Assembly: GCA_976226885.1 (NCBI GenBank)
Contig: OZ320316.1
Span: 88,164,001-88,228,000, forward strand
Source: Iphione sp. A-MEVVRFRX5
Taxonomy: Eukaryota
Direction of reading: 5' to 3'
DNA length: 64,000 nucleotides
Below, piece after piece: positions 11,001-22,739 of this stretch. A program made the position numbers and the translations under genes. Under the pieces are notes generated by a model. It saw only the letters and a list, made by a program, of their open reading frames with translations. It was not told where the DNA came from and ran no database searches. Within the stretch, counting starts at the first letter, position 1. The number at the start of each line of letters is the position of its first letter.

Positions 11001-11426
11001 CAGATGTGTAGATCAGTCTGGCCAAACAGGTCATTTGTAGCCAGCGCAAAAAGTCTCTCATATAATTTAATACAGCTGCTTATCATTACTTCGGGGGTTA
11101 TTAATTGCAGCTAAAGGGCATCATGTGCCAGACACTAATGATTTAAGTGGTGCTTGACATGATGTAAATAGGGCAAACCTGTTCCAAACTACATACGGGT
11201 GGATATAGATTTAGGTCTTTGTCCTCTGCTTAGGGGCACCGAGTGATACCGGACTAAATTCGGCATGTACAGTGTATTGTAGCCGCTGCGTGCGGCTACA
11301 GCGATCCGGATCGTGCGGCTCCGGAGAGCCGCTTGGTGCTGAAGTAGGGAGCCGGATCGTGCGGCTACGGGGATCCGGATCGCTCGGCTTTGGGTTGGCC
11401 CTGGGGGGGAAGGAGTAGCACACTTG

Positions 11427-11434
11427 TATAAATA
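11427..11434 (+). promoter_or_regulatory. LTR TATA box (TATAAATA)
   Basis: Canonical TATA about 80 nt upstream of the poly(A) signal, consistent with a U3-R-U5 layout. Duplicated in the 3' LTR. Confidence 0.75.
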
Positions 11435-11505
11435 GGAGCCTCCCCCCAGGGCCCGGGGCAGTTGTTACCTGATACTCTTACTGTTCACTTCATATTTCTC
11501 TCAGC

Positions 11506-11511
11506 AATAAA
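11506..11511 (+). terminator. LTR polyadenylation signal AATAAA (functional copy expected in the 3' LTR, 20992-20997)
   Basis: Canonical hexamer followed by a TGTGTC/TGTCTT GU-rich downstream segment. Confidence 0.7.
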
Positions 11512-11534
11512 CCTCCTCTTCTATAACCTGTGTC

Positions 11535-13229
11535 ATGTCTTGGTTACGAAACGGCAAGCGCTACATTGGTGGCAGCGGTGGGATCTCGCCCCCTGCCGCT
11601 GGAGGTCGTCACTCCACCGGCCGTGGCTACCGGAGATTGGTAGGCCGCAGCCCTGGAGAGGAAGGTACACAGGGTGGAAGAGCACTGGAGGACATAGGCA
11701 GCTCCAGCTCCGATGGGGAAGTGGAGTTGATGCCGGATCGTGCGGCTCGGGGGAGCGCGCAACCCCAGGGGCCGCACCGCCGTCGCCGCTCCGGCTCTTC
11801 CACGGAGGAAGAAGACTGGGCAGACGCTGGGAGTGAAGAAGACGACACAGCCTCAGAGCAAGGGAGTGGCAGACCAAGCCGGAAAAGCCACGGCGTCCCA
11901 CCCCCGGGGCCGACCGGGGGCGCGTCGTCATTGTCAGGACAGCAACAGCATAGGTCGGGAGGAAGTGCCGGAACAGCCGGATTGGGGGCCCGTGCCGGAA
12001 CGTGCGGATCTGGGGCCCCGGCCACACCAGCCGGCTTGCGTGGAGGAGCCGGAACAGCCGGATCAGGGTCCCATGCCGGAACGTTCGGATCGGGGGACCG
12101 AGGAGTACCAGCCGGCTTGAGGGGAGGAGCCGGAACAGCCGGATCAGGGTCCCATGCCGGAACGTTCGGATCGGGAGACCATGCTGCACCAGTCAACCAG
12201 AATGGAGATGCTGGAACGTTCGGATTAGGGGAACATGCCGGATCAGCCGGCACAAGTGGGGATGCCGGCACAGGCGGATCTGATGGCAGGTCCACGGTCT
12301 CCTCGAGGTCCTCCACTGGGGATAGTGACCCGCATTCCACAGCGGATACGGTGCGGCAACTGGTTGCAGAATTGCAGTCTTCACTCCACCCCCCCCCTCC
12401 GCCCCGGAAGTTCCATGTCAAGCCCGAGACATTTGATGGTTCCGTCCCGCTGGCGGAGTACCTGCACCATTTTTCGCTAGTGGCCCAAGCCAACCGCTGG
12501 GACCGCGGCGAGCAAGCACTGCAGATCAGCGTGTGCCTGCGGAAGTCGGCGCAATCGGCGCTCCGTTCCGCGTCCTTGGACGTCAGCGCCCCGGGTGCCT
12601 TTGACAAAATTGTCGAAGTACTTCGACAGCGGTTCCAATCGGAAGACAGAGTCACGTACTACGAGCAGGAGTTGAAACAGCGCCGTCAGGCCAAGGACGA
12701 AGACGCGCAACGCCTAGCAGAAGAAATCGAGAGGCTAGTCCGCCAGGCGTACCCGGAGGCGGAGGGGGCGTGGCTCGATCGCATGTGCCGGGATGCGTTC
12801 GTGGCGGCACTGAGGGACGAGCGCAGCCGCCGTTGGGTAGTGCAAGCCAAGGCGCGATCGTTCCAATCGGCGATCTCGGAAGCATTGCTGGCGGAGTCGT
12901 ATCATAAGGCGGAGCGCGAGAGGGTCACCGCCCCGAGTACCGCGAGAGTGCACGCTGCGTCCGACCAAGAAGAGCAAGTTGCAGCTTCTCAGGCGGCGGC
13001 TCCCCCAGGAGGGCTTGAGCGCATTGAACAGCTGCTCCTAAAGTTGTTGGAGCGACCGCAACCCACCTCCGGGCGCCGAGGAGGTAAGAAGCAAGACAAC
13101 GACGGCTGCTTCTACTGTAAGCAGCCTGGCCATTTCAAGCGGGATTGCCCGGCCCGGCAAGCTGCTGAGAAGGAGAAGGCTTCGGAAGCTCAAGCGGAAA
13201 ACGCGAAGCCGCCCGCCCCGGCCCAGTAG
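11535..13229 (+). CDS. gag: Gag (564 aa): ~290-aa Gly/Ser/Ala-rich repetitive N-terminus, capsid domain and CCHC zinc knuckle
   Basis: Capsid-like KPETFDGSVPLAEYLHHFSLVAQANRW from ~12405 and CX2CX4HX4C (CFYCKQPGHFKRDC) at 13107-13148. The ATG lies within the LTR. Confidence 0.93.
   Translation: MSWLRNGKRYIGGSGGISPPAAGGRHSTGRGYRRLVGRSPGEEGTQGGRALEDIGSSSSDGEVELMPDRAARGSAQPQGPHRRRRSGSSTEEEDWADAGSEEDDTASEQGSGRPSRKSHGVPPPGPTGGASSLSGQQQHRSGGSAGTAGLGARAGTCGSGAPATPAGLRGGAGTAGSGSHAGTFGSGDRGVPAGLRGGAGTAGSGSHAGTFGSGDHAAPVNQNGDAGTFGLGEHAGSAGTSGDAGTGGSDGRSTVSSRSSTGDSDPHSTADTVRQLVAELQSSLHPPPPPRKFHVKPETFDGSVPLAEYLHHFSLVAQANRWDRGEQALQISVCLRKSAQSALRSASLDVSAPGAFDKIVEVLRQRFQSEDRVTYYEQELKQRRQAKDEDAQRLAEEIERLVRQAYPEAEGAWLDRMCRDAFVAALRDERSRRWVVQAKARSFQSAISEALLAESYHKAERERVTAPSTARVHAASDQEEQVAASQAAAPPGGLERIEQLLLKLLERPQPTSGRRGGKKQDNDGCFYCKQPGHFKRDCPARQAAEKEKASEAQAENAKPPAPAQ
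11567..11584 (+). other. Primer-binding site TGGTGGCAGCGGTGGGAT for tRNA-Leu (AAG/UAG isoacceptor)
   Basis: 18 nt starting 1 nt after the LTR end, complementary to the 3' end (...ATCCCACCGCTGCCACCA) of metazoan tRNA-Leu as I recall it. Confidence 0.9.
11966..12290 (+). repeat. Coding tandem repeats in the gag N-terminus (81-bp period, smaller AGT(A/F/C)GS sub-units)
   Basis: CCAGCCGGCTT occurs at 12027 and 12108 (81 bp apart). The peptide PAGLRGGAGTAGSGSHAGTFGSGD occurs twice. Confidence 0.85.
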
Positions 13230-13239
13230 GGCGGGCGGC
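13196..13239 (+). promoter_or_regulatory. -1 programmed ribosomal frameshift signal between gag and pol
   Basis: Slippery G_GAA_AAC (13196-13202), a 5-nt spacer, then a perfect 11-bp stem GCCGCCCGCCC (13208-13218) / GGGCGGGCGGC (13229-13239). The pol frame is -1 relative to gag and open from 13169. Confidence 0.8.
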
Positions 13240-13273
13240 ATCCGATCACTTCAGTCAACCCCTGCCCGAGCAT

Positions 13274-16200
13274 TTGGAGGTACTGGCGGCCTCCTTTGCG
13301 GGCCCGGGCCGGATAGAGCTTAAGGGCCATCGGAGGGCGGGGTGTCGCGGACTCCTGCTAGAGGGCCAAATAGCCGGGGTCCCTGTCGATTGGCTAGTGG
13401 ATACGGGAGCCTCGACATCGCTCCTGTCCACCCGAGTGTTCCGCCAGACCACGAACGTGAAGTTAGGGGCAGTGGACGTCCGAGTGGTGGGAGTGGACGG
13501 TGCCCCGCTTAAGGTGCATGGGACCATCGAGTGCGGGGTGGACTTTGGGCCGGTCACCCTGGCCGTCGCAGCCAAGGTAGTCGACATGGACGTCCCGGCC
13601 CTCTTGGGCCTCGACTGGCTGGACCAGATGGACGCTGCCGTGGATACACGCGGAGCGGTAGTGTCTGTAAGGGCACCCGGTGGTGATGCCCCGGTTGCAG
13701 TCAGTGCGGGCTGTGACCGTGTAGTGAGGGCAGGTAATGTGGAATTTGTGTGCGCCCAAGTACAAGGAGTAGCGGCGGGGGCCACAACCGGGGTCGTGGA
13801 GGCTAGCGTGCAGTTCGAAGAGAAGTCTGGACTGCGGGTAGCGCAAGCCATGGTGACCCCGAGGGCAGGCCGAGTTTGGGTTCCGGTGTGGAATCCGGGG
13901 TCGCAAGATCTTCAACTGTACAGAGGGACGCACCTGGGGAGATTCCAAGAGGTGGCGGTCGTGGGAGCCGAGGAGACCCCGTCCGGCCAGGCCTGGGAGG
14001 AGGAACAAGATTCGGCAGTCCAACAGCTCCTGGAGGGCCTTCCATCAGAGGTTGAAGGGGAAGAACGCGAAGAGATTGCCGAGATGTTACTCCGGAATCG
14101 GGCGGTGTTCCAAACATCATCCGGCCCCCTGGGATGCACACCCGAGGTGCAGCATCACATAGACACCCAAGGGCACCCTCCTATCCGCCAGAGAGCGCGG
14201 CGTCTACCTCCTCACAAGAGGGAAGCAGTCCAGAGGGAGGTAGAGCGGATGGTGGAAAAAGGGGTGCTGGAGCCCTCCTCCAGCCCGTGGGCGTCGCCCC
14301 TGGTCCTGGTACAGAAAAAGGACGGGGGGCTTCGGTTTTGCATCGACTACAGGCGCCTGAACGCGGTGACCAAGAAGGACGCCTTTCCCCTGCCCCGCAT
14401 CGATGACACCCTGGACGCGCTACAAGGCAGCCGGTATTTCTCAGCCATAGACCTGGCCAGTGGTTATTGGCAGGTGCGTATGGCCCCGCAGGACGCCGAG
14501 AAGACCGCAGTCTGCACCCCGGCAGGACTGTTCCAGTTCCGGGTGATGCCGTTCGGGCTGTGTAATGCCCCGTCCACATTCGAGCGGCTGATGGAGACAG
14601 TCCTGCGGGGCCTGGTGGGAACCGAGTGCCTGGTTTACCTGGACGACATCATTGTCCTCGGGCGCTCGGTCCCGGGAATGTGCCAACGGCTGGAGCGAGT
14701 CTTCGTCCGACTTCGTGAGGCAGGGCTGCACGTCAAGGCCAGCAAGTGCCAGCTGTTCAAGAAGGAGGTGTCATACCTGGGGCACCGTGTATCGGCGCAG
14801 GGGGTTGGAGTGGACCCCGAGAAGGTCGAGGCTATTACCGGCTGGCCTACACCACGCTGCGTCACCGAGGTTAAGAGCTTCCTCGGATTATGCTCCTATT
14901 ACCGGAACTTTGTCCGGGGGTTTGCAACAATAGCAGCCCCACTCCACGCTCTAGCAGAGAAGGGGGCAGAGTTCTGCTGGACGCAGGCGTGCCAGGCGGC
15001 CTTCGAGGTGTTGAAGAAGGAGCTCAGTAGCACCCCGGTGCTGGGGTTCCCAGATCCTGTGGGCCAGCTGATACTGGATACGGACGCTTCCGACACAGGT
15101 ATAGGAGCAGTGTTGTCCCAGGCCCAGCAAGGGCAAGAGAGGGTGTTGGCGTACGCGAGTCGCACGCTGTCCTGGCCGGAGCGTAATTACTGCGTCACAC
15201 GGCGCGAATTACTCGCTGTGGTATTTGCGCTGCGCAAGTTCCGTTGCTATGTGGGCGGGCGCACAGTGGAGATCCGGACAGATCACAATTCTCTACGGTG
15301 GCTGTGTGCGTTTAAGGAGCCCCAGGGCCAACTAGCCAGATGGCTTGAAGAGGTCTTCTGCCATGACATCAACATCGTGCACCGCCCGGGGCGACAGCAT
15401 GGGAATGCCGACGGGTTATCGCGGCAGGAGTGTAAACAGTGTGGACGCCGGGAGGAGGGCTCTTCGGGGGAGGAGCTGGCCGCAGCCGTCACGCTGGGTG
15501 AGGTGGAAGGAGTAGAGCGAGTAGGTGTGGCACAACGCGCCGAGCCGGCCACAGCAGAGATTATCCAGGCACTGGAGGCCGGGCAACCCCCACCAGGGTT
15601 ACGGGTGGGGCTTAGCTGGGAGGAGAGACAGCTACGCTCGGAAGCTCACCGGCTCCAACTACATAGGGGCGTACTCGCCAGGAGTTGGGAGGGTGAGGGA
15701 GGCACGTCTGTCCCTCAAGTGTACGTACCGGCCGCGCTACGACAGCCGCTTTGGCAGGAGACCCACGCGGGAGCGATGGGAGGCCACCTGGGCCCCGACA
15801 AGACCGGGGCATTAATCCGGATGCGCTGGTTTTGGCCGGGCCTGAGGAGAGACGTGGAGAGGTGGTCACGCTGCTGTCAAACCTGCCAACGGAGGAAGGG
15901 ACCAGGGAGGTCCCGAAGGGCCCCGCTGCAGGCCCGGCCGGTCTCGGAGCCCTGGGAGCTGGTGGCGGCCGACATATTGGGTCCCCTCCCGGTGACGAGC
16001 CGCGGAAATCGGTACATCCTGGTCGTGGCAGACCACTTTTCCAAGTGGACAGAGGCTTTCCCCTTAGAGGAGGCTACGGCGAAGGCGACAGCCGAAGTGA
16101 TCGTGCGGGAGGTGGTGTGCCGGTTCGGCCCCCCACGAGTCATTCACTCGGACCAAGGGCGGAACTTTGAGGCAGCACTATTTACGGAAGTGCTCCAACT

Positions 16201-19200
16201 ATTAGGTGTCGAGAAGTCTCGAACCACCCCCTACCACCCGCAGAGCGACGGAGTGGTAGAGCGGTTCAACCGGACACTGGGGAACATGCTGGCCTCCATG
16301 GCGGAAGAACGGCGGAAAGACTGGGATGAGGCCCTTCCCTTTGTGATGGCCGCATACCGGGCGACTCCACATACGGCCACAGGGGAGTCGCCCAACTGGC
16401 TCCTCTTTCATCGTGAGGTAAACCTACCGGTAGATCTGCGCTATGGACATCCGGGGCCGGACCCAGTGACTAGGGGCGCCTACGCGGACAAAGTGGCGAT
16501 GGAGGTGGGAGAGGCCCACCGTCGCGTGGCGGAGAGGCTGCGCCGGGTGGCAGCAGCCAGCAAGGACTGGTATGACCAAAAAGTGCGACGTCAAACTTAC
16601 GAGCCGGGAGAGCGCGTGTGGCTATTCTCACCACTCAGGAAGAAAGGGGTGTCCCCTAAGCTCCAGAGTTGGTGGGAGGGCCCTTGGTTGGTGGAGGACA
16701 AACTATCAGCCGTGGTCTACCGAGTGAGCCGGGGAGCCAAGAGGAGGGTGGTACATGCCGATCGACTGAAACCGGCATATTTGGATCCACAGGTGACGTG
16801 CCGCGTGGGGAGAATCGAGACCATTCACATCTCAGGAGCCGCGCCTGTTTCGCCGCGGCTGGGGGGCAGCCGCAGCGAGCGGTCTGTGGGAAGCCGCGCG
16901 GTGCGGCTACCCATAGCCGCATCAACCGAGCGGCGCGCCCGCGCCGCAGCGTGCGAACCCACAGAGGGCGCAGGAGCCGCGCCTGTTTCGCCGCGGCTGG
17001 GGGGCAGCCGCAGCGAGCGGTCTGTGGGAAGCCGCGCGGTGCGGCTACCCATAGCCGCATCAACTGAGCGGCGCGCCCGCGCCGCAGCGTGCGAACCCAC
17101 AGAGGGCGCCACTGCGTTTCAGCGGCGCCATCTCTTGGATTCTATAAAAGACGTCGATTCGCAGTGTCGACCTTCTGTCGCGCGGCTACCACACCACGAG
17201 GAACGACTTAAGCCTCCCAGACCCGCTCAGGACACCCTTGCCGAGCTCGCTACACCAGGAGCCACGAGGAATACCCTACCACGAGGACAGCCGCAGCGCG
17301 CATCGATCGAGTCGCCCGATTATTCTCAGGTGAGCAGCACTACGTGGAACGCTATGGGCGATAAAGGGGAGGTCGTCAAGCCGCGATGGGTTAACGGGCT
17401 GGGGAGAGCAGCAGCGGCACGGGTAGCTCAAATCCAATTTCCTATTGGTAAAAAGGGTACATCCAGTGCGGAACTTTTTGCATGGCGCCGAAAAACTGAC
17501 GGGAGCATGTCCTCTTCCGCAGCTCGAGCCGCGTGTCGCACCGGGGCACTGTGCAGCCGCCTCATCCCGATCCGCAGCGTAGGCATGGACGACGGGAAGC
17601 CGCAGCTTCCGACGGAGCCGCGCCCCGCGGCTGGAGACAAGCCGCCAGCAGCGGAGTCCGGGGAGCCGCGCCTTGCGGCTGGGGGAAAGCCGCCGCAGCA
17701 TCCTAGAGCCGCGACGCATGAAGAGCCGCGCCAACCAAGCGAGCCGCTGGGAGCGGCGCCGCCCCCCGTCGAGCCGCATGGTGCGGCTACCCACGAGCCG
17801 CACCGAGCGGATCGAGAGACCGAGGAGGACCGACCAGCTACCGGGGGTAGCCCCGGACCCGCCCCATCGTCACCCACGCAAGATCAGGACGAACATGAGG
17901 ACCCCAACGCCTCGCCTCGGGTGCACTGTACGCTGTGTAAGAAAAGATTCGTGCACCAATCCAACCTCAATCGGCACTTGCGTGATGTGCACGAACAGCA
18001 GGGTTTCGGATGGCTGTGCCCGGACCAGGACTGTGGGAGCCAGGGTTTCCATAGGAGAGGCGATTGGAAGCGCCACCTGAGCCAGGTCCATGGGAACCTG
18101 GGCTGGGCCCACACGGTGGACATACAGTTTTTGAAGTTTCGGGGCCTTAACCCTACTCGGGCCAGGGCGCAGGAGTGCCCCGAGTCGCTCCTACCCCAGC
18201 TGGAGAAGGTGCGGAAACAAGAAAAGCGTAGCCGGCGCCGCGACCTCAAGAAAATGATTGGCGAGGGAACATCGGGCGCAGGATCTTCCGACTTGGAGGT
18301 GCCTTGTCAACCACCGGGCACCTCCCCCGCCGGTCCCTCTGCATCCGCGCCGGCGGTCCCGTCACCGTCGCCGTCGACTGCGGCCCCGCCGGCGGTCCCG
18401 GAGGGACGACCGCAGCCCCCCCCGGCCGTCCCCTCCACCAGCACCGGAAAGACGGCATCGCGACGGGCCCGCCGCCGTCCAGATCTGCCGTTGCCACCGA
18501 GTTCGTCCGAAGAGGGGACGCCTGAGCCACCCCCACCCCGTCGTCGTTCCTCCCGTCAGGCGACGCGTGGGCGGAAGGGCCCTCGCACGCCCAGTGTCTC
18601 GCCAGGCAGCGCTGTCCCCTCGACGTCGGGGTCCGATGGACCGCCGGGTGGGGACGAACCTCTTCCCCATCGGGACACCCCGGAGCGACCCCCTTCTGCC
18701 CCGGCCGAGACGCAAGGGTCAGCCCCGCCCCCTTCACGCTATGCGCAGGGCACCCCAGCTAAGACATACGAGAGGAAACGCCCGGCGGAGTGGACCCCTC
18801 CAAGGCCTGCCCAGCCTGTATTCCGTGCCCCGGCGGTTCCCTCAGCACTGATAGACCTTCCAGTGTCGCAGACGGCATACCGGGGCCGCCGACTCTTCGT
18901 GGGGGACCACGAGGAGCGCCTGGATGAGGGGGCGGACACAGCTCTCATGAGCCCGGCCGACATAGAGTGGGCACCGGGGACGTCGGACTGGAGCAGCACA
19001 ACGTCCCATTCCGCCGCACCGACGTCTCCTCGAGGTCCCACACCCTCTGTGGGAAGGGGCCTAGGAGGTGGGCGCGCGACGTTCCGAGCCCCGGCCGGGA
19101 CATACGACAGACCACCCCTGCGGCTTCCGGCGCCGGGCAAATGGCCTTCGCAGCGACAAGGGCCAGAGACCGAGCGCAGAGAGGCTGAGCTCGACCGACG

Positions 19201-20620
19201 CTTGGGACCGGAGTGGTCGCGCCCAGAGGCCGTGGAGACGGTGGTGCTGACTGACTCCCCCGACCGCAGTCCGTCACCCAAGCGTCCACGAGGGCAGCAG
19301 GAGCCGGAGACCGGTGGAGCGGGCACGGCACCGCCAGCTCCCGCAGGAAAGGGTGACCCCGGCCCCACCGACATCCTGGCCCAAGCTATGGAGGAGTCCC
19401 TGGGACGGTACCTCCCGGGGACATCCTCCAGCTCCGACGCCGGCGACCTGGCCGAGATCTTCCAGGAAGACGACGAGGAGATCCCCACCACGCCCGGGGG
19501 AGCCCGACCTGCCTCGGCCCCGGGGTCTCGGCCCTTGGGTAACCCTGCAGGGAAGCAGCTCCCTCCCCAACCCGAGGTGCCGGCCGACAAGAGTCAACCT
19601 GTCGACAGGGCGGGAGAGCCGGTGCCGCCGCCGCCTCGCAGCGACTCCCAAGCCGAGCAGCAGCCTGCCGACCCTGGGGCGCCCAAGGAGGACGCACCGG
19701 AAGTACCGCCGCCACGCGGGGACGCCCAGCCCAGCCTGCCGCCGCAGCCTGCCCCTGTGTTGGTAACAGAGGGCGTGGCGACGGAAACCGGGGACGTGCC
19801 ACTGACACCCGCCCCCGGCCCCAAAGTCGTAGGTACGGTGGACCGTGCAAGAGAAGACGCGGCGACGGGAACCGAGGACATACCACTGGCACCCGCCCCC
19901 GGCCCCAAAGTCGTAGGAACGGTGGACCGTGCTCTGTCACCCTTTCCTCCCCCGCTTGCACCTCGGGAGGATGCGACCACACAGACTCCAGTGGGAGAGG
20001 AGCCGGACAACCGCCGGTCCGCACCGGGACCGATGGATACCCCACCCCGTCACTCCACACCTGGGGGGAGGGGGACCGGAGCTCAAGACGACGCCGGAAC
20101 GACCACCACGGTGAACCGTCCTCGCCTCCCGTCACCCTGGGCCAGGGTGCCACCCACGCCGCCACGGGCAGGCCCCTCCGGGCCCCACACACGAGCCGGA
20201 CAGCCGAGGACCGGCACCCCACTGCACTCACCCCCGGTGTTGGATGTATCAGGACCGGCGGCGGCCGATGAAGCAGTACCAGCCGAAGTCCACGTCTGGG
20301 CCGCCGCACGCCTGGTCAGCGCGGAGACCAAGGCACCCACGGGCTGGGAAGTACGCGATGCGACGGCGGCCCTGGACCTGCAGGTCCTCACCCAGGGCCA
20401 GGTTAAAGTCACTCTGAACCAGACCATCCGGTTCAGGCGCTTGGGCCCCCCTGTCGCAGGAACCGAACTGGCTCGCTGGCATGCCACCCACGGCACGGTG
20501 CTCACCCGGGGGCGACCGGTTCTCCGGATGCATTCCTGGAGGGAGAACCCGGTCGCCCCGGGAGAAGTGGAGATAATCGTCAAAGAACTTTGGACGGTGT
20601 TTACGGACACCGCCCAATAG
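13274..20620 (+). CDS. pol: Pol polyprotein (PR, RT, RNase H, IN) with a ~1,280-aa in-frame C-terminal extension. The frame is open from 13169 and is probably entered by frameshift rather than at the TTG.
   Basis: PR LVDTGA (D at 13400); RT YLDD (14636-14647); RNase H DTDAS/ELLAV/RTDH/NADGLSR (~15070-15425); IN HHCC from 15764, D..D(35)E and GPY/F-like EGPW..VVHADRLKP ending ~16774. No stop codon until 20618-20620. Confidence 0.97.
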   Translation: MEVLAASFAGPGRIELKGHRRAGCRGLLLEGQIAGVPVDWLVDTGASTSLLSTRVFRQTTNVKLGAVDVRVVGVDGAPLKVHGTIECGVDFGPVTLAVAAKVVDMDVPALLGLDWLDQMDAAVDTRGAVVSVRAPGGDAPVAVSAGCDRVVRAGNVEFVCAQVQGVAAGATTGVVEASVQFEEKSGLRVAQAMVTPRAGRVWVPVWNPGSQDLQLYRGTHLGRFQEVAVVGAEETPSGQAWEEEQDSAVQQLLEGLPSEVEGEEREEIAEMLLRNRAVFQTSSGPLGCTPEVQHHIDTQGHPPIRQRARRLPPHKREAVQREVERMVEKGVLEPSSSPWASPLVLVQKKDGGLRFCIDYRRLNAVTKKDAFPLPRIDDTLDALQGSRYFSAIDLASGYWQVRMAPQDAEKTAVCTPAGLFQFRVMPFGLCNAPSTFERLMETVLRGLVGTECLVYLDDIIVLGRSVPGMCQRLERVFVRLREAGLHVKASKCQLFKKEVSYLGHRVSAQGVGVDPEKVEAITGWPTPRCVTEVKSFLGLCSYYRNFVRGFATIAAPLHALAEKGAEFCWTQACQAAFEVLKKELSSTPVLGFPDPVGQLILDTDASDTGIGAVLSQAQQGQERVLAYASRTLSWPERNYCVTRRELLAVVFALRKFRCYVGGRTVEIRTDHNSLRWLCAFKEPQGQLARWLEEVFCHDINIVHRPGRQHGNADGLSRQECKQCGRREEGSSGEELAAAVTLGEVEGVERVGVAQRAEPATAEIIQALEAGQPPPGLRVGLSWEERQLRSEAHRLQLHRGVLARSWEGEGGTSVPQVYVPAALRQPLWQETHAGAMGGHLGPDKTGALIRMRWFWPGLRRDVERWSRCCQTCQRRKGPGRSRRAPLQARPVSEPWELVAADILGPLPVTSRGNRYILVVADHFSKWTEAFPLEEATAKATAEVIVREVVCRFGPPRVIHSDQGRNFEAALFTEVLQLLGVEKSRTTPYHPQSDGVVERFNRTLGNMLASMAEERRKDWDEALPFVMAAYRATPHTATGESPNWLLFHREVNLPVDLRYGHPGPDPVTRGAYADKVAMEVGEAHRRVAERLRRVAAASKDWYDQKVRRQTYEPGERVWLFSPLRKKGVSPKLQSWWEGPWLVEDKLSAVVYRVSRGAKRRVVHADRLKPAYLDPQVTCRVGRIETIHISGAAPVSPRLGGSRSERSVGSRAVRLPIAASTERRARAAACEPTEGAGAAPVSPRLGGSRSERSVGSRAVRLPIAASTERRARAAACEPTEGATAFQRRHLLDSIKDVDSQCRPSVARLPHHEERLKPPRPAQDTLAELATPGATRNTLPRGQPQRASIESPDYSQVSSTTWNAMGDKGEVVKPRWVNGLGRAAAARVAQIQFPIGKKGTSSAELFAWRRKTDGSMSSSAARAACRTGALCSRLIPIRSVGMDDGKPQLPTEPRPAAGDKPPAAESGEPRLAAGGKPPQHPRAATHEEPRQPSEPLGAAPPPVEPHGAATHEPHRADRETEEDRPATGGSPGPAPSSPTQDQDEHEDPNASPRVHCTLCKKRFVHQSNLNRHLRDVHEQQGFGWLCPDQDCGSQGFHRRGDWKRHLSQVHGNLGWAHTVDIQFLKFRGLNPTRARAQECPESLLPQLEKVRKQEKRSRRRDLKKMIGEGTSGAGSSDLEVPCQPPGTSPAGPSASAPAVPSPSPSTAAPPAVPEGRPQPPPAVPSTSTGKTASRRARRRPDLPLPPSSSEEGTPEPPPPRRRSSRQATRGRKGPRTPSVSPGSAVPSTSGSDGPPGGDEPLPHRDTPERPPSAPAETQGSAPPPSRYAQGTPAKTYERKRPAEWTPPRPAQPVFRAPAVPSALIDLPVSQTAYRGRRLFVGDHEERLDEGADTALMSPADIEWAPGTSDWSSTTSHSAAPTSPRGPTPSVGRGLGGGRATFRAPAGTYDRPPLRLPAPGKWPSQRQGPETERREAELDRRLGPEWSRPEAVETVVLTDSPDRSPSPKRPRGQQEPETGGAGTAPPAPAGKGDPGPTDILAQAMEESLGRYLPGTSSSSDAGDLAEIFQEDDEEIPTTPGGARPASAPGSRPLGNPAGKQLPPQPEVPADKSQPVDRAGEPVPPPPRSDSQAEQQPADPGAPKEDAPEVPPPRGDAQPSLPPQPAPVLVTEGVATETGDVPLTPAPGPKVVGTVDRAREDAATGTEDIPLAPAPGPKVVGTVDRALSPFPPPLAPREDATTQTPVGEEPDNRRSAPGPMDTPPRHSTPGGRGTGAQDDAGTTTTVNRPRLPSPWARVPPTPPRAGPSGPHTRAGQPRTGTPLHSPPVLDVSGPAAADEAVPAEVHVWAAARLVSAETKAPTGWEVRDATAALDLQVLTQGQVKVTLNQTIRFRRLGPPVAGTELARWHATHGTVLTRGRPVLRMHSWRENPVAPGEVEIIVKELWTVFTDTAQ
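16833..17108 (+). repeat. Tandem duplication of 138 bp (46 codons) just after integrase
   Basis: 16833-16970 and 16971-17108 differ at a single synonymous site (ACC/ACT). Confidence 0.95.
17927..18091 (+). other. Two tandem C2H2 zinc fingers within the Pol extension
   Basis: CTLCKKRFVHQSNLNRHLRDVH (C-x2-C-x12-H-x4-H, 17927-17992) and CPDQDCGSQGFHRRGDWKRHLSQVH (C-x4-C-x13-H-x4-H, 18017-18091), with the usual F and hydrophobic helix positions and an 8-aa linker. Confidence 0.9.
19777..19932 (+). repeat. 84-bp-period coding duplication (PL(T/A)PAPGPKVVGTVDRA x2)
   Basis: Units start at 19777 and 19861 and are more diverged than the 138-bp pair. Confidence 0.9.
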
Positions 20621-20750
20621 GAGTTTACCACTTCCCCTTCAAACAAGGGACTACCGTTATGGTTATCTTTGCGGACGTTGGATTTTAGTGTTTGACATTA
20701 CTCGTTGGACAGTTTTTTTGTTAGCCTTGCGCTTGGGTCAAGCGCAGTCT

Positions 20751-20763
20751 GAAGGGGGAATAG
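20751..20763 (+). other. Polypurine tract GAAGGGGGAA(TAG)
   Basis: Purine run immediately upstream of the 3' LTR TG at 20764. Confidence 0.9.
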
Positions 20764-21051
20764 TGTAGCCGCTGCGTGCGGCTACAGCGATCCGGATCGT
20801 GCGGCTCCGGAGAGCCGCTTGGTGCTGAAGTAGGGAGCCGGATCGTGCGGCTACGGGGATCCGGATCGCTCGGCTTTGGGTTGGCCCTGGGGGGGAAGGA
20901 GTAGCACACTTGTATAAATAGGAGCCTCCCCCCAGGGCCCGGGGCAGTTGTTACCTGATACTCTTACTGTTCACTTCATATTTCTCTCAGCAATAAACCT
21001 CCTCTTCTATAACCTGTGTCATGTCTTGGTTACGAAACGGCAAGCGCTACA
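20764..21051 (+). repeat. 3' LTR (288 bp)
   Basis: Matches 11278-11565 base for base by eye and is followed by the GTAT TSD. Confidence 0.97.
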
Positions 21052-22002
21052 GTATCAATTTGTATCGTCGGAAGTGTCAATATCCCCACACGCTTGCACA
21101 CAAACACACACACATAGATATACACATATACATATGTTATGGGTCTCCTATGATCAATGAACCCATAAACTACACACCAACTGTATCTATGCTGCCTTTG
21201 GACATTCGCTGCGGACGCCCAGCTACTGACTTCAAAACTGCTATCCACTCCAGCTTCTTTACGGAATACACACAGGTTTGTCATATTCCTGCTTTATCTC
21301 CTGAACATTGATTTTATTTTGCACATTTTCACGTGAATACTTTCCTGCTATTCACATACCTTACGTTCGCAAATATAAGGATCGAAAACCCCGAGTTCTC
21401 GTGTGAGTTGTATTACTCGGTGCCAGCGCCATACATTAACGTTGTCATCTAAAAGACTGGTTGATCGCTAATACCCTCCCGGCCACATAGGGGAGAAGAC
21501 ATGTTATTTCAGTAGTGTGTATTCCTCCCAAAATCTGCAATACTCTTCTTTGGACAGTTGGGATAGTGATCATGTCTTATCTAGGTCCTCTTCTTAACAT
21601 GTACTGGAAGGGGGAGGGAGTAGTTTAGGCAGCTTTACATTTTCACGCATTCGGTTATGTAGGTTCAACCTATGGGACAAACCCGAGACAGATATTTACT
21701 TTGTCCCTACACATGCGTGAAGACATAATACATACAGATGTGTATCCATGGTGATGATCTAACTTCCATGTTTTTTACTGGATATGGGTGCATAAACATA
21801 ATGGCTTTCAACCAAGAGCCATAGCAGTTCAGAACATTGTGTATAAGTTATATTATGGAAATTCGTCCATTTTAGACATATGGATACGTTTCTAGGGCAC
21901 TCAATATGAGTACATGGGAGAGCCAGCATAATGATGGCTTATTTTTGTTTGCTGACTATAAGATACTCACATGATCAGGGGTACAGTTTTTTGATTGACT
22001 AA

Positions 22003-22739
22003 GGCCGGCTTTCCATGCATATGGAAATGACCTCTGGAGCATGGAGCCTGCACTCCAGAAAAAAATGATCTGAGACACCTTGCTTGAGGGCTTTCCATGG
22101 ACTCAGGTCTGTGGATCCATGGTCCAGGTCTGTGGGCCGAAAACGAACCTGGGCCATAAATTTACACATTTTCCGGACTATGGATACCCCCACAGACCAG
22201 TAGGATAGAGAGATGGATGTTATCAGCTGGATAGGCACTGTCTATCTCATTATATATAATGTGAGATATTTTCTAATTTGCATATCATTTGTGTAAAACC
22301 TGCACAATCGCCACAAAAAAGAATGCAAAACTTTCACCAATCTGCTTCGATCCCCACAAAAAACACACAATTTTCACTGATATGCTTCAACCTCCACAAA
22401 AAACGCACCATTTTCACTGATATGCTTCAACCTCCACAAAAAACGCACCATTTTCACTGATATGCTTCAACCTCCACAAAAAAGCACCATTTTCACCAGT
22501 ATGCTTCAATCTCCATAACCTCATAAACTTATAGACTACATACATACATGTACATACATACACATACCTGGCACAAATGTACATGCATAGTCACATGCAT
22601 ACCAGTCCATGTCCATCTGGAAGTCAGCCCATTTTCCATATACCTGGAAAGTACCAGTCTGAAGAGTCCAAAAAATCGGCCGAATTTCCTGAGGGACTAT
22701 GCTGTGCAGAGAAATCTCCGGATGCATGGAAAGCTGGCC
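22003..22739 (+). mobile_element. Non-autonomous PIF/Harbinger-like MITE (family A, copy 2; uninterrupted, 737 bp)
   Basis: TIRs GGCCGGCTTTCCATGCAT and (reverse complement) GGCCAGCTTTCCATGCAT, 17/18 match. Perfect TAA TSD at 22000-22002 and 22740-22742. No coding capacity. Confidence 0.85.
22331..22517. repeat. 40-bp minisatellite (TTTTCACTGATATGCTTCAACCTCCACAAAAAACGCACCA), ~4.5 copies, inside MITE A
   Basis: Identical units at 22371-22410 and 22411-22450, with degenerate flanking units. Confidence 0.9.

Follow-up and report, generated by a model that had tools for sequence, protein, structure and literature searches.

The 64,000-nt stretch of Iphione sp. A-MEVVRFRX5 contig OZ320316.1 analysed here (the window, to which all coordinates refer) contains a young Ty3/gypsy LTR retrotransposon (Metaviridae) at 11278–21051. 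Its LTRs (288 bp, TG...CA, forward strand; 5' LTR at 11278–11565, 3' LTR at 20764–21051) show no differences over 288 bp, and are flanked by the target-site duplication GTAT at 11274–11277 and 21052–21055. A TATAAA is present at 11427 in the 5' LTR. The primer-binding site, identified from sequence at 11567–11584 on the forward strand, is one that we take to be of the tRNA-Leu type, and a purine tract is also present. The gag gene (11730–13229, forward strand), counted from the first in-frame ATG past the primer site, encodes a CCHC knuckle, and the pol frame (13169–20620, forward strand; 2,483 codons from stop to stop) encodes protease, RT and RNase H followed by integrase, in the order found in Metaviridae. 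The two frames overlap at 13169–13229, near the sequence GGAAAAC, which suggests that pol is made by frameshifting. Integrase ends at about 16774 and is followed by an in-frame extension of 1,270 codons. A domain search of the element found no env domain. In the 1.18-Gb animal assembly covered by our genome-wide searches, the LTR has 40 scored relatives with 75–100% identity, and a 15-mer from U3 has 86 exact matches, compared to none for its reverse. The host DNA to the right of the element contains a 40-bp tandem repeat array (22311–22510).

The extension includes two C2H2 zinc fingers at 17927–18091, as the first-pass annotation had claimed (Pfam zf-C2H2, 26.7 bits against a cut-off of 25.2), and the translation confirmed the residues it had listed for helix positions −1/3/6, H/N/R in finger 1 and R/D/R in finger 2. 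Finger 1 (17927–17992, forward strand) has H, S, N and R at helix positions −1, +2, +3 and +6, while finger 2 (18017–18091, forward strand) has R, G, D and R. Both fingers have the C2H2 ligands and the ββα fold, but finger 2 is atypical (Cx4C-x13-H, with 13 rather than 12 residues from Cys to His, and Gly instead of Asp at +2), and the linker, EQQGFGWL, is not of the TGEKP type. The AlphaFold model of the module has a pLDDT of 89.8. Among solved folds, the closest are the finger pairs of Tramtrack and CTCF bound to DNA (Z of 5.5–6.0, rmsd of 2.4–2.6 over 57 residues), although the matches are modest (Foldseek E of 0.05). As modeled, the pair shares its fold and relative finger geometry with Tramtrack (2drp) and the CTCF pairs, together with Arg, Asn and Asp at the base contacts of the Zif268 code, and finger 1 may resemble Tramtrack finger 1. 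Unlike in those classical two-finger domains, the linker forms a strand in the model, there are extra C-terminal strands, and the module is encoded by a retrotransposon. The extra strands belong to a conserved C-terminal extension of the module (18092–18181, forward strand), modeled as a short helix and two strands. Over 24 aligned rows, conservation at the surface is highest where the fingers contact bases, with N+3 and R+6 of finger 1 each found in 19, and R−1, D+3 and R+6 of finger 2 in 20, 21 and 19, respectively; positions +2 and +5 are variable.

Several features upstream of the fingers suggest that they are expressed from a separate transcript. A putative internal-promoter TATA box, TATAAAA, lies at 17143–17149 on the forward strand, followed by a putative 193-nt intron (17330–17522, forward strand) with AG/GTGAG at the donor and TCTTCCGCAG at the acceptor. 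The donor and acceptor pair is present in 8 of 12 subclade copies, and the donor without the acceptor in three more. The first ATG past the acceptor, at 17585 on the forward strand, is in the finger frame and is the putative start; 24 of 26 rows have an in-frame Met no more than 40 codons from the first Cys. Of 22 families, 13 have a TATA-like word in the last 1 kb upstream of the fingers, where 3.0 are expected in sum; the count for pol stretches is 1 of 22 (one family offered none for this comparison). All 10 copies checked of a distant clade have a separate ORF of 406–556 codons that begins with the fingers. Many copies nevertheless have an uninterrupted frame between pol and the fingers, so that a role fused to Pol is also conceivable.

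The product predicted from the ATG at 17585 is a Pro/Ser-rich protein of 1,011 residues, in which no clear activation motif was found. It ends in a conserved, folded domain of 120 residues at the end of the extension (20261–20617, forward strand), with 36–79% identity within the subclade and a model (pLDDT 88) of four long strands and two helices. This domain matched no Pfam family, and its Atlas scores were under 0.9. A fold search gave nothing above common levels, with a best Z of 7.2 to phage tail-terminator-like rows. The domain weakly resembles the phage tail-terminator and ferredoxin-like folds.

A query with the fingers gave 150 scored matches in the genome (47 to 100% identity), and a 17-mer from the primer site gave 4,717 exact matches. 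Three samples were fetched: 20 of the finger-query matches, the first 80 of the 4,717 primer-site matches (an unbiased sample), and 40 more with divergent fingers. By profile search, 68 of the 80 elements sampled by primer site alone carried the finger pair, which is thus a clade-wide feature; given the 4,717 matches, the clade may hold thousands of finger-bearing copies. Target duplications in the clade are 4 bp long and mostly ATAT (32 of 60 copies). No finger-less sister lineage was found among the 12 copies without an HMM match: six belong to finger-bearing families, L180 has the pair by pattern, L154 has a remnant of finger 1, and the remaining four are L105, L132, L164 and L178. Seven of the 80 copies (L114, L120, L145, L150, L159, L160 and L166) have the LTR of an autonomous family and lack RT, but keep gag and, about 3.4 kb past the primer site, the finger pair (helix RQSNVDR). 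These copies are a deleted derivative that retains the candidate regulator.

The first-pass annotation had predicted that the finger pair reads GCG-GAN, and had pointed to similar repeated sequences in the LTR and gag of the element. The repeats are present as described, with CCGGATCGTGCGGCT at 11306, 11352 and 11733, a variant at 11375, and GTGCGGAT at 12002, and the many GCGGCT/AGCCGC words reported after integrase were also borne out (30 at 16791–17926, compared to 2.4 expected from dinucleotide shuffles). The predicted site is not the repeated word, however. GCGGA is absent from both LTRs (0.7–0.8 expected) and occurs at the shuffle level before the fingers (5, compared to 5.6 expected) and in the whole element (37, compared to 34.7), while the best code-predicted word, GCGGAT, ranks only 266 among the 2,080 hexamers in U3, leader and pre-finger DNA. 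The enrichment check that had been proposed thus placed GCGGCT and CCGGAT above chance and GCGGA at chance, and GCG-GAN was dropped as the repeated site in this element. The word that is enriched is (G/C)CGG(A/C)T, of which GCG-GCT is the dominant form. Both halves of the U3 repeat differ from the prediction at a single position, base 1 in CCGGAT and base 5 in GCGGCT.

The words are clustered in three regions, an arrangement that recurs across a large clade. In U3, 11 of them, including the repeated CCGGATCGTGCGGCT, lie on both strands at 11281–11380, upstream of the TATAAA, compared to 0.7 expected, a count matched by none of 300 shuffles; GCGGCT occurs there five times (0.3 expected), as does CCGGAT (0.1 expected). 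Another 20 are found at 11730–12330, in the repeats of the leader and gag N-terminus (D2–D4; 2.7 expected). Between integrase and the fingers there are 32 in total. A 138-bp tandem duplication (D6, 16833–17108) upstream of the putative internal TATA box contains 12 GCGGCT/AGCCGC words, and 16791–17142, up to that box, has 12 (G/C)CGG(A/C)T words compared to 2.2 expected. Three more lie between the box and the acceptor, and a second cluster of 17 (2.5 expected) occupies 17527–17812, which is coding DNA, in three frames and on both strands. Enrichment was weak in pol (19, compared to 9.7) and absent in the gag core (4, compared to 3.7), the post-finger DNA (9, compared to 7.9) and the flank (10, compared to 11.4), and GCGGA and CGGCT are depleted in the host flanks. 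After CGG, base 5 in this element is C in 73 cases and A in 36, and base 6 is T in 56 of 95, compared to 16 of 76 in control DNA. The possibility that the repeats are peptide-driven was ruled out, as the words occur in 18 codon contexts and three frames; their presence in all frames and on both strands places the pattern at the level of the DNA rather than the peptide. The (G/C)CGG(A/C)T pattern was defined post hoc, which limits its strength for this one copy.

Related families offered a broader test of the recognition code. His was allowed to contact T, and Glu to contact C or T. The core of the code, as given in PMC12264921, pairs Arg or Lys with G, Asn or Gln with A, and Asp with C. For each of 23 families, the predicted hexamer was ranked among the 2,080 in U3, leader and pre-finger DNA, regions chosen beforehand on other families, with dinucleotide correction. 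The predicted hexamer was among the top four words in nine families. Eight of these have near-textbook helices (R/H-x-x-N-x-x-R in finger 1 and R-x-D/E-D-x-x-R in finger 2) and all predict GCGGAG, which ranks 1, 1, 1, 1, 2, 2, 2 and 4, with 17–32 observed compared to 1.8–2.8 expected, although these families are kin and may count as one event. In pol and post-finger DNA, the same word ranks 743–1926 in six of the eight, while in the other two it is enriched in pol too. In the ninth family, with Arg at +3, GCGGGG ranks third. The literal code failed in the remaining 14 families, including that of the present element, with ranks of 12–1014. The L118 and L124 families differ from the others in that GCGGAG is enriched along pol itself (20–23, where about 4 are expected).

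The top GCG-anchored words were compared on an RT tree of 24 rows, made by a quick method and leaving out F26 (no RT), F27 (broken RT) and families 12, 15, 18–22 and 28. GCG-GAG is the top word in three clades. Arg at +3 together with Arg at +6 in finger 1 goes with GCG-GGG (three families), and Lys at +6 with GCG-CAC/AG, while the clade of the present element has GCG-GC(T/A/G/C). Where the finger 1 contact residues are lost (E/G/E, A/A/Q), the word is GCG-TCG, nested beside a GCG-GNN family; the many identical copies with long open frames indicate that this change in finger 1 is not decay. Base 6 was also compared with residue −1: it is mostly G with Arg (7 of 7 families) and T with His (3 of 4, one family retaining G), but A with Gln in only 1 of 4. 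As far as can be judged from these comparisons, the 3' half of the word changes in related families where finger 1 changes, although sign tests on independent contrasts were not significant, with one or two independent pairs per trait on this tree. In the subclade of the present element, base 5 is predominantly C despite the retention of Asn+3, which contradicts the Asn-adenine rule as stated in PMC12264921 and PMC3113574. This base-5 switch is a single event and coincides with other changes (loss of Asp+2 in finger 2, Trp+4). L176, L211–L240 and L253–L255 make up a young family in which finger 1 lacks the Arg and Asn contacts in nearly all copies; its leader has 17–24 GCGTCG words, and its U3 has GTGC(A/T) words instead.

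The first-pass annotation had also proposed an autoregulatory loop, in which the element encodes a factor that binds its own promoter. This idea stands in part: the code hexamer is a top word in nine families of relatives, the word shifts with finger 1, and the words surround a likely internal promoter. On the other side, the site that was named is not repeated here, GCG-GCT breaks the Asn+3-adenine rule, and most families miss the code. The likely internal promoter and the occurrence of the fingers throughout the clade had escaped the first-pass annotation. We think it rather likely that the finger protein binds the clustered words of its own element and regulates both of its promoters. The two-finger module would be made from the element's own internal, spliced transcript, and would bind the (G/C)CGG(A/C)T clusters in U3, the leader and the internal promoter. 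Finger 2 (R/D/R) would read the near-constant GCG half and finger 1 the variable 3' half, the low specificity of two fingers being offset by the density of sites. The bound module would regulate transcription of the element, most likely by switching it on or shielding it from silencing, and the internal promoter would provide a feedback loop. The module is best read as a self-encoded, sequence-specific regulator resembling foamy virus Tas or VANC.

We considered the possibility that a host GC-box-type factor uses the clusters, which descent would have preserved, that the fingers do something else, and that the code match reflects shared ancestry and chance. Many host zinc-finger proteins have sites with GCG-rich words, and the failures of the code, the non-significant contrasts and the lack of a finger-less control lineage among the copies examined are all consistent with this explanation. 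It does not readily account for a single predicted hexamer reaching ranks 1–4 of 2,080 after dinucleotide correction, for words that differ between co-resident families of one host in step with finger 1, or for the depletion of GCGGA and CGGCT in the host flanks, and we regard it as unlikely. Another possibility is that the fingers do bind their own words, but as part of Pol or integrase on the cDNA, where they would hold the U3 end or compact the pre-integration complex. The in-frame fusion is kept in the subclade (for example in 4/4, 4/4 and 2/2 copies of three families), and in many families a word lies no more than about 10 bp from the U3 tip. In contrast, the distant clade has the fingers in an ORF of their own, the clusters with the most words are located internally around a TATA box, and the seven deleted copies keep gag and fingers without RT, making such a role quite improbable. 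We give similarly little weight to the module acting as a self-repressor or copy-number brake. This would draw on the same evidence for binding as activation does; the clusters reach downstream of both TATA boxes, and the Pro/Ser-rich product has no clear activation motif and a C-terminal domain without a family. The similarly arranged Tas and VANC, however, are reported to activate or de-silence (PMC3798896, PMC5735166), and the module is kept by young, expanding families.

The position of the fingers, in frame after integrase, would also fit a chromodomain-type role in steering integration to GCG-GNN in host DNA. The family words are not enriched in the 300-bp 5' flanks of 60 copies (3, compared to 4.4 expected) and the target duplications are AT-rich, and local integration targeting was dropped as a very improbable explanation. 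Both orientations of GCGGCT/AGCCGC are present in leader and pre-finger DNA, as they would be if the words were complementary halves of RNA stems for packaging or dimerization. Pairing would neither fix a code-matching hexamer across families nor change base 6 with residue −1, and we find this explanation scarcely credible.

The reading of the module as a self-encoded regulator has precedents. Foamy virus Tas (Bel1) has response elements in U3 and an internal promoter and forms a positive feedback (PMC3798896); like the protein predicted here, it is a DNA-binding protein that the element itself encodes, with its gene in the 3' part of the genome behind an internal promoter, putative in our case. 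Foamy viruses are spumaretroviruses with a gag-pol-env genome, whereas the present element has a gypsy-type pol and no detected env domain. Tas is not described as a C2H2 protein in the text of PMC3798896, and its response elements share little sequence; the present element has C2H2 fingers, its words are short, clustered and number in the dozens, and the finger gene is in frame with pol. VANC of the Arabidopsis VANDAL elements binds a short motif present at high density, often through tandem repeats, and its motif and protein diverge together between families (PMC5735166), a pattern that the sequences suggest here as well. Dense, family-specific motif clusters are likewise found in the present element. 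VANDAL is a plant Mutator-like DNA transposon, and VANC, according to PMC5735166, is a non-C2H2 protein with a 9-bp motif, mainly non-coding and in one orientation, unlike the 6-bp words on both strands, partly in coding DNA, of this LTR element with C2H2 fingers. The bdelloid ORF3s (PMC5408684) and env-carrying elements (PMC13524379) have an extra 3' ORF, typically on a spliced message, as proposed here, but these ORFs encode env, exonuclease or esterase, and the terms "zinc finger" and "C2H2" are absent from the main texts of both papers. We found no gypsy-encoded C2H2 self-regulator in the literature searched, which included PMC12440569 and bioRxiv 10.64898/2026.08.24.746577 (outside supplements and Repbase). 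Our contribution consists of a census of the clade, the rank test including the families that fail it, the finger–word shifts on the tree and the corrected word for this element.

With slightly less than even confidence, we propose a wider reading: that a Ty3/gypsy radiation carries its own programmable C2H2 transcription factor, made from an internal promoter and recognizing family-specific word clusters in both promoters, and that helices and words diverged together to give co-resident families with partly private on-switches or anti-silencing circuits, the present subclade reading its word non-canonically (Asn+3 over C). If binding holds, env-less LTR retrotransposons would join complex retroviruses and plant DNA transposons as elements that encode control of their own transcription, and the genome would offer a natural panel of more than 20 finger/word pairs, usable for studying protein–DNA co-evolution, exceptions to the code and competition between families. 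C2H2 fingers are familiar chiefly from the host side, as weapons against retroelements; in this case, both the finger and the site seem to belong to the element.

Homologue searches with the finger region found nothing, and a profile search with the fingers was dominated by poly-finger proteins, with none of 150 having an RT. Among 120 RT relatives from other sources, one, P0184, has a similar finger pair after pol. Residues 1626–1706 of this Pol-like protein form a related two-finger module with different helices, and since P0184 is from another public source, this arrangement also exists outside the present genome.
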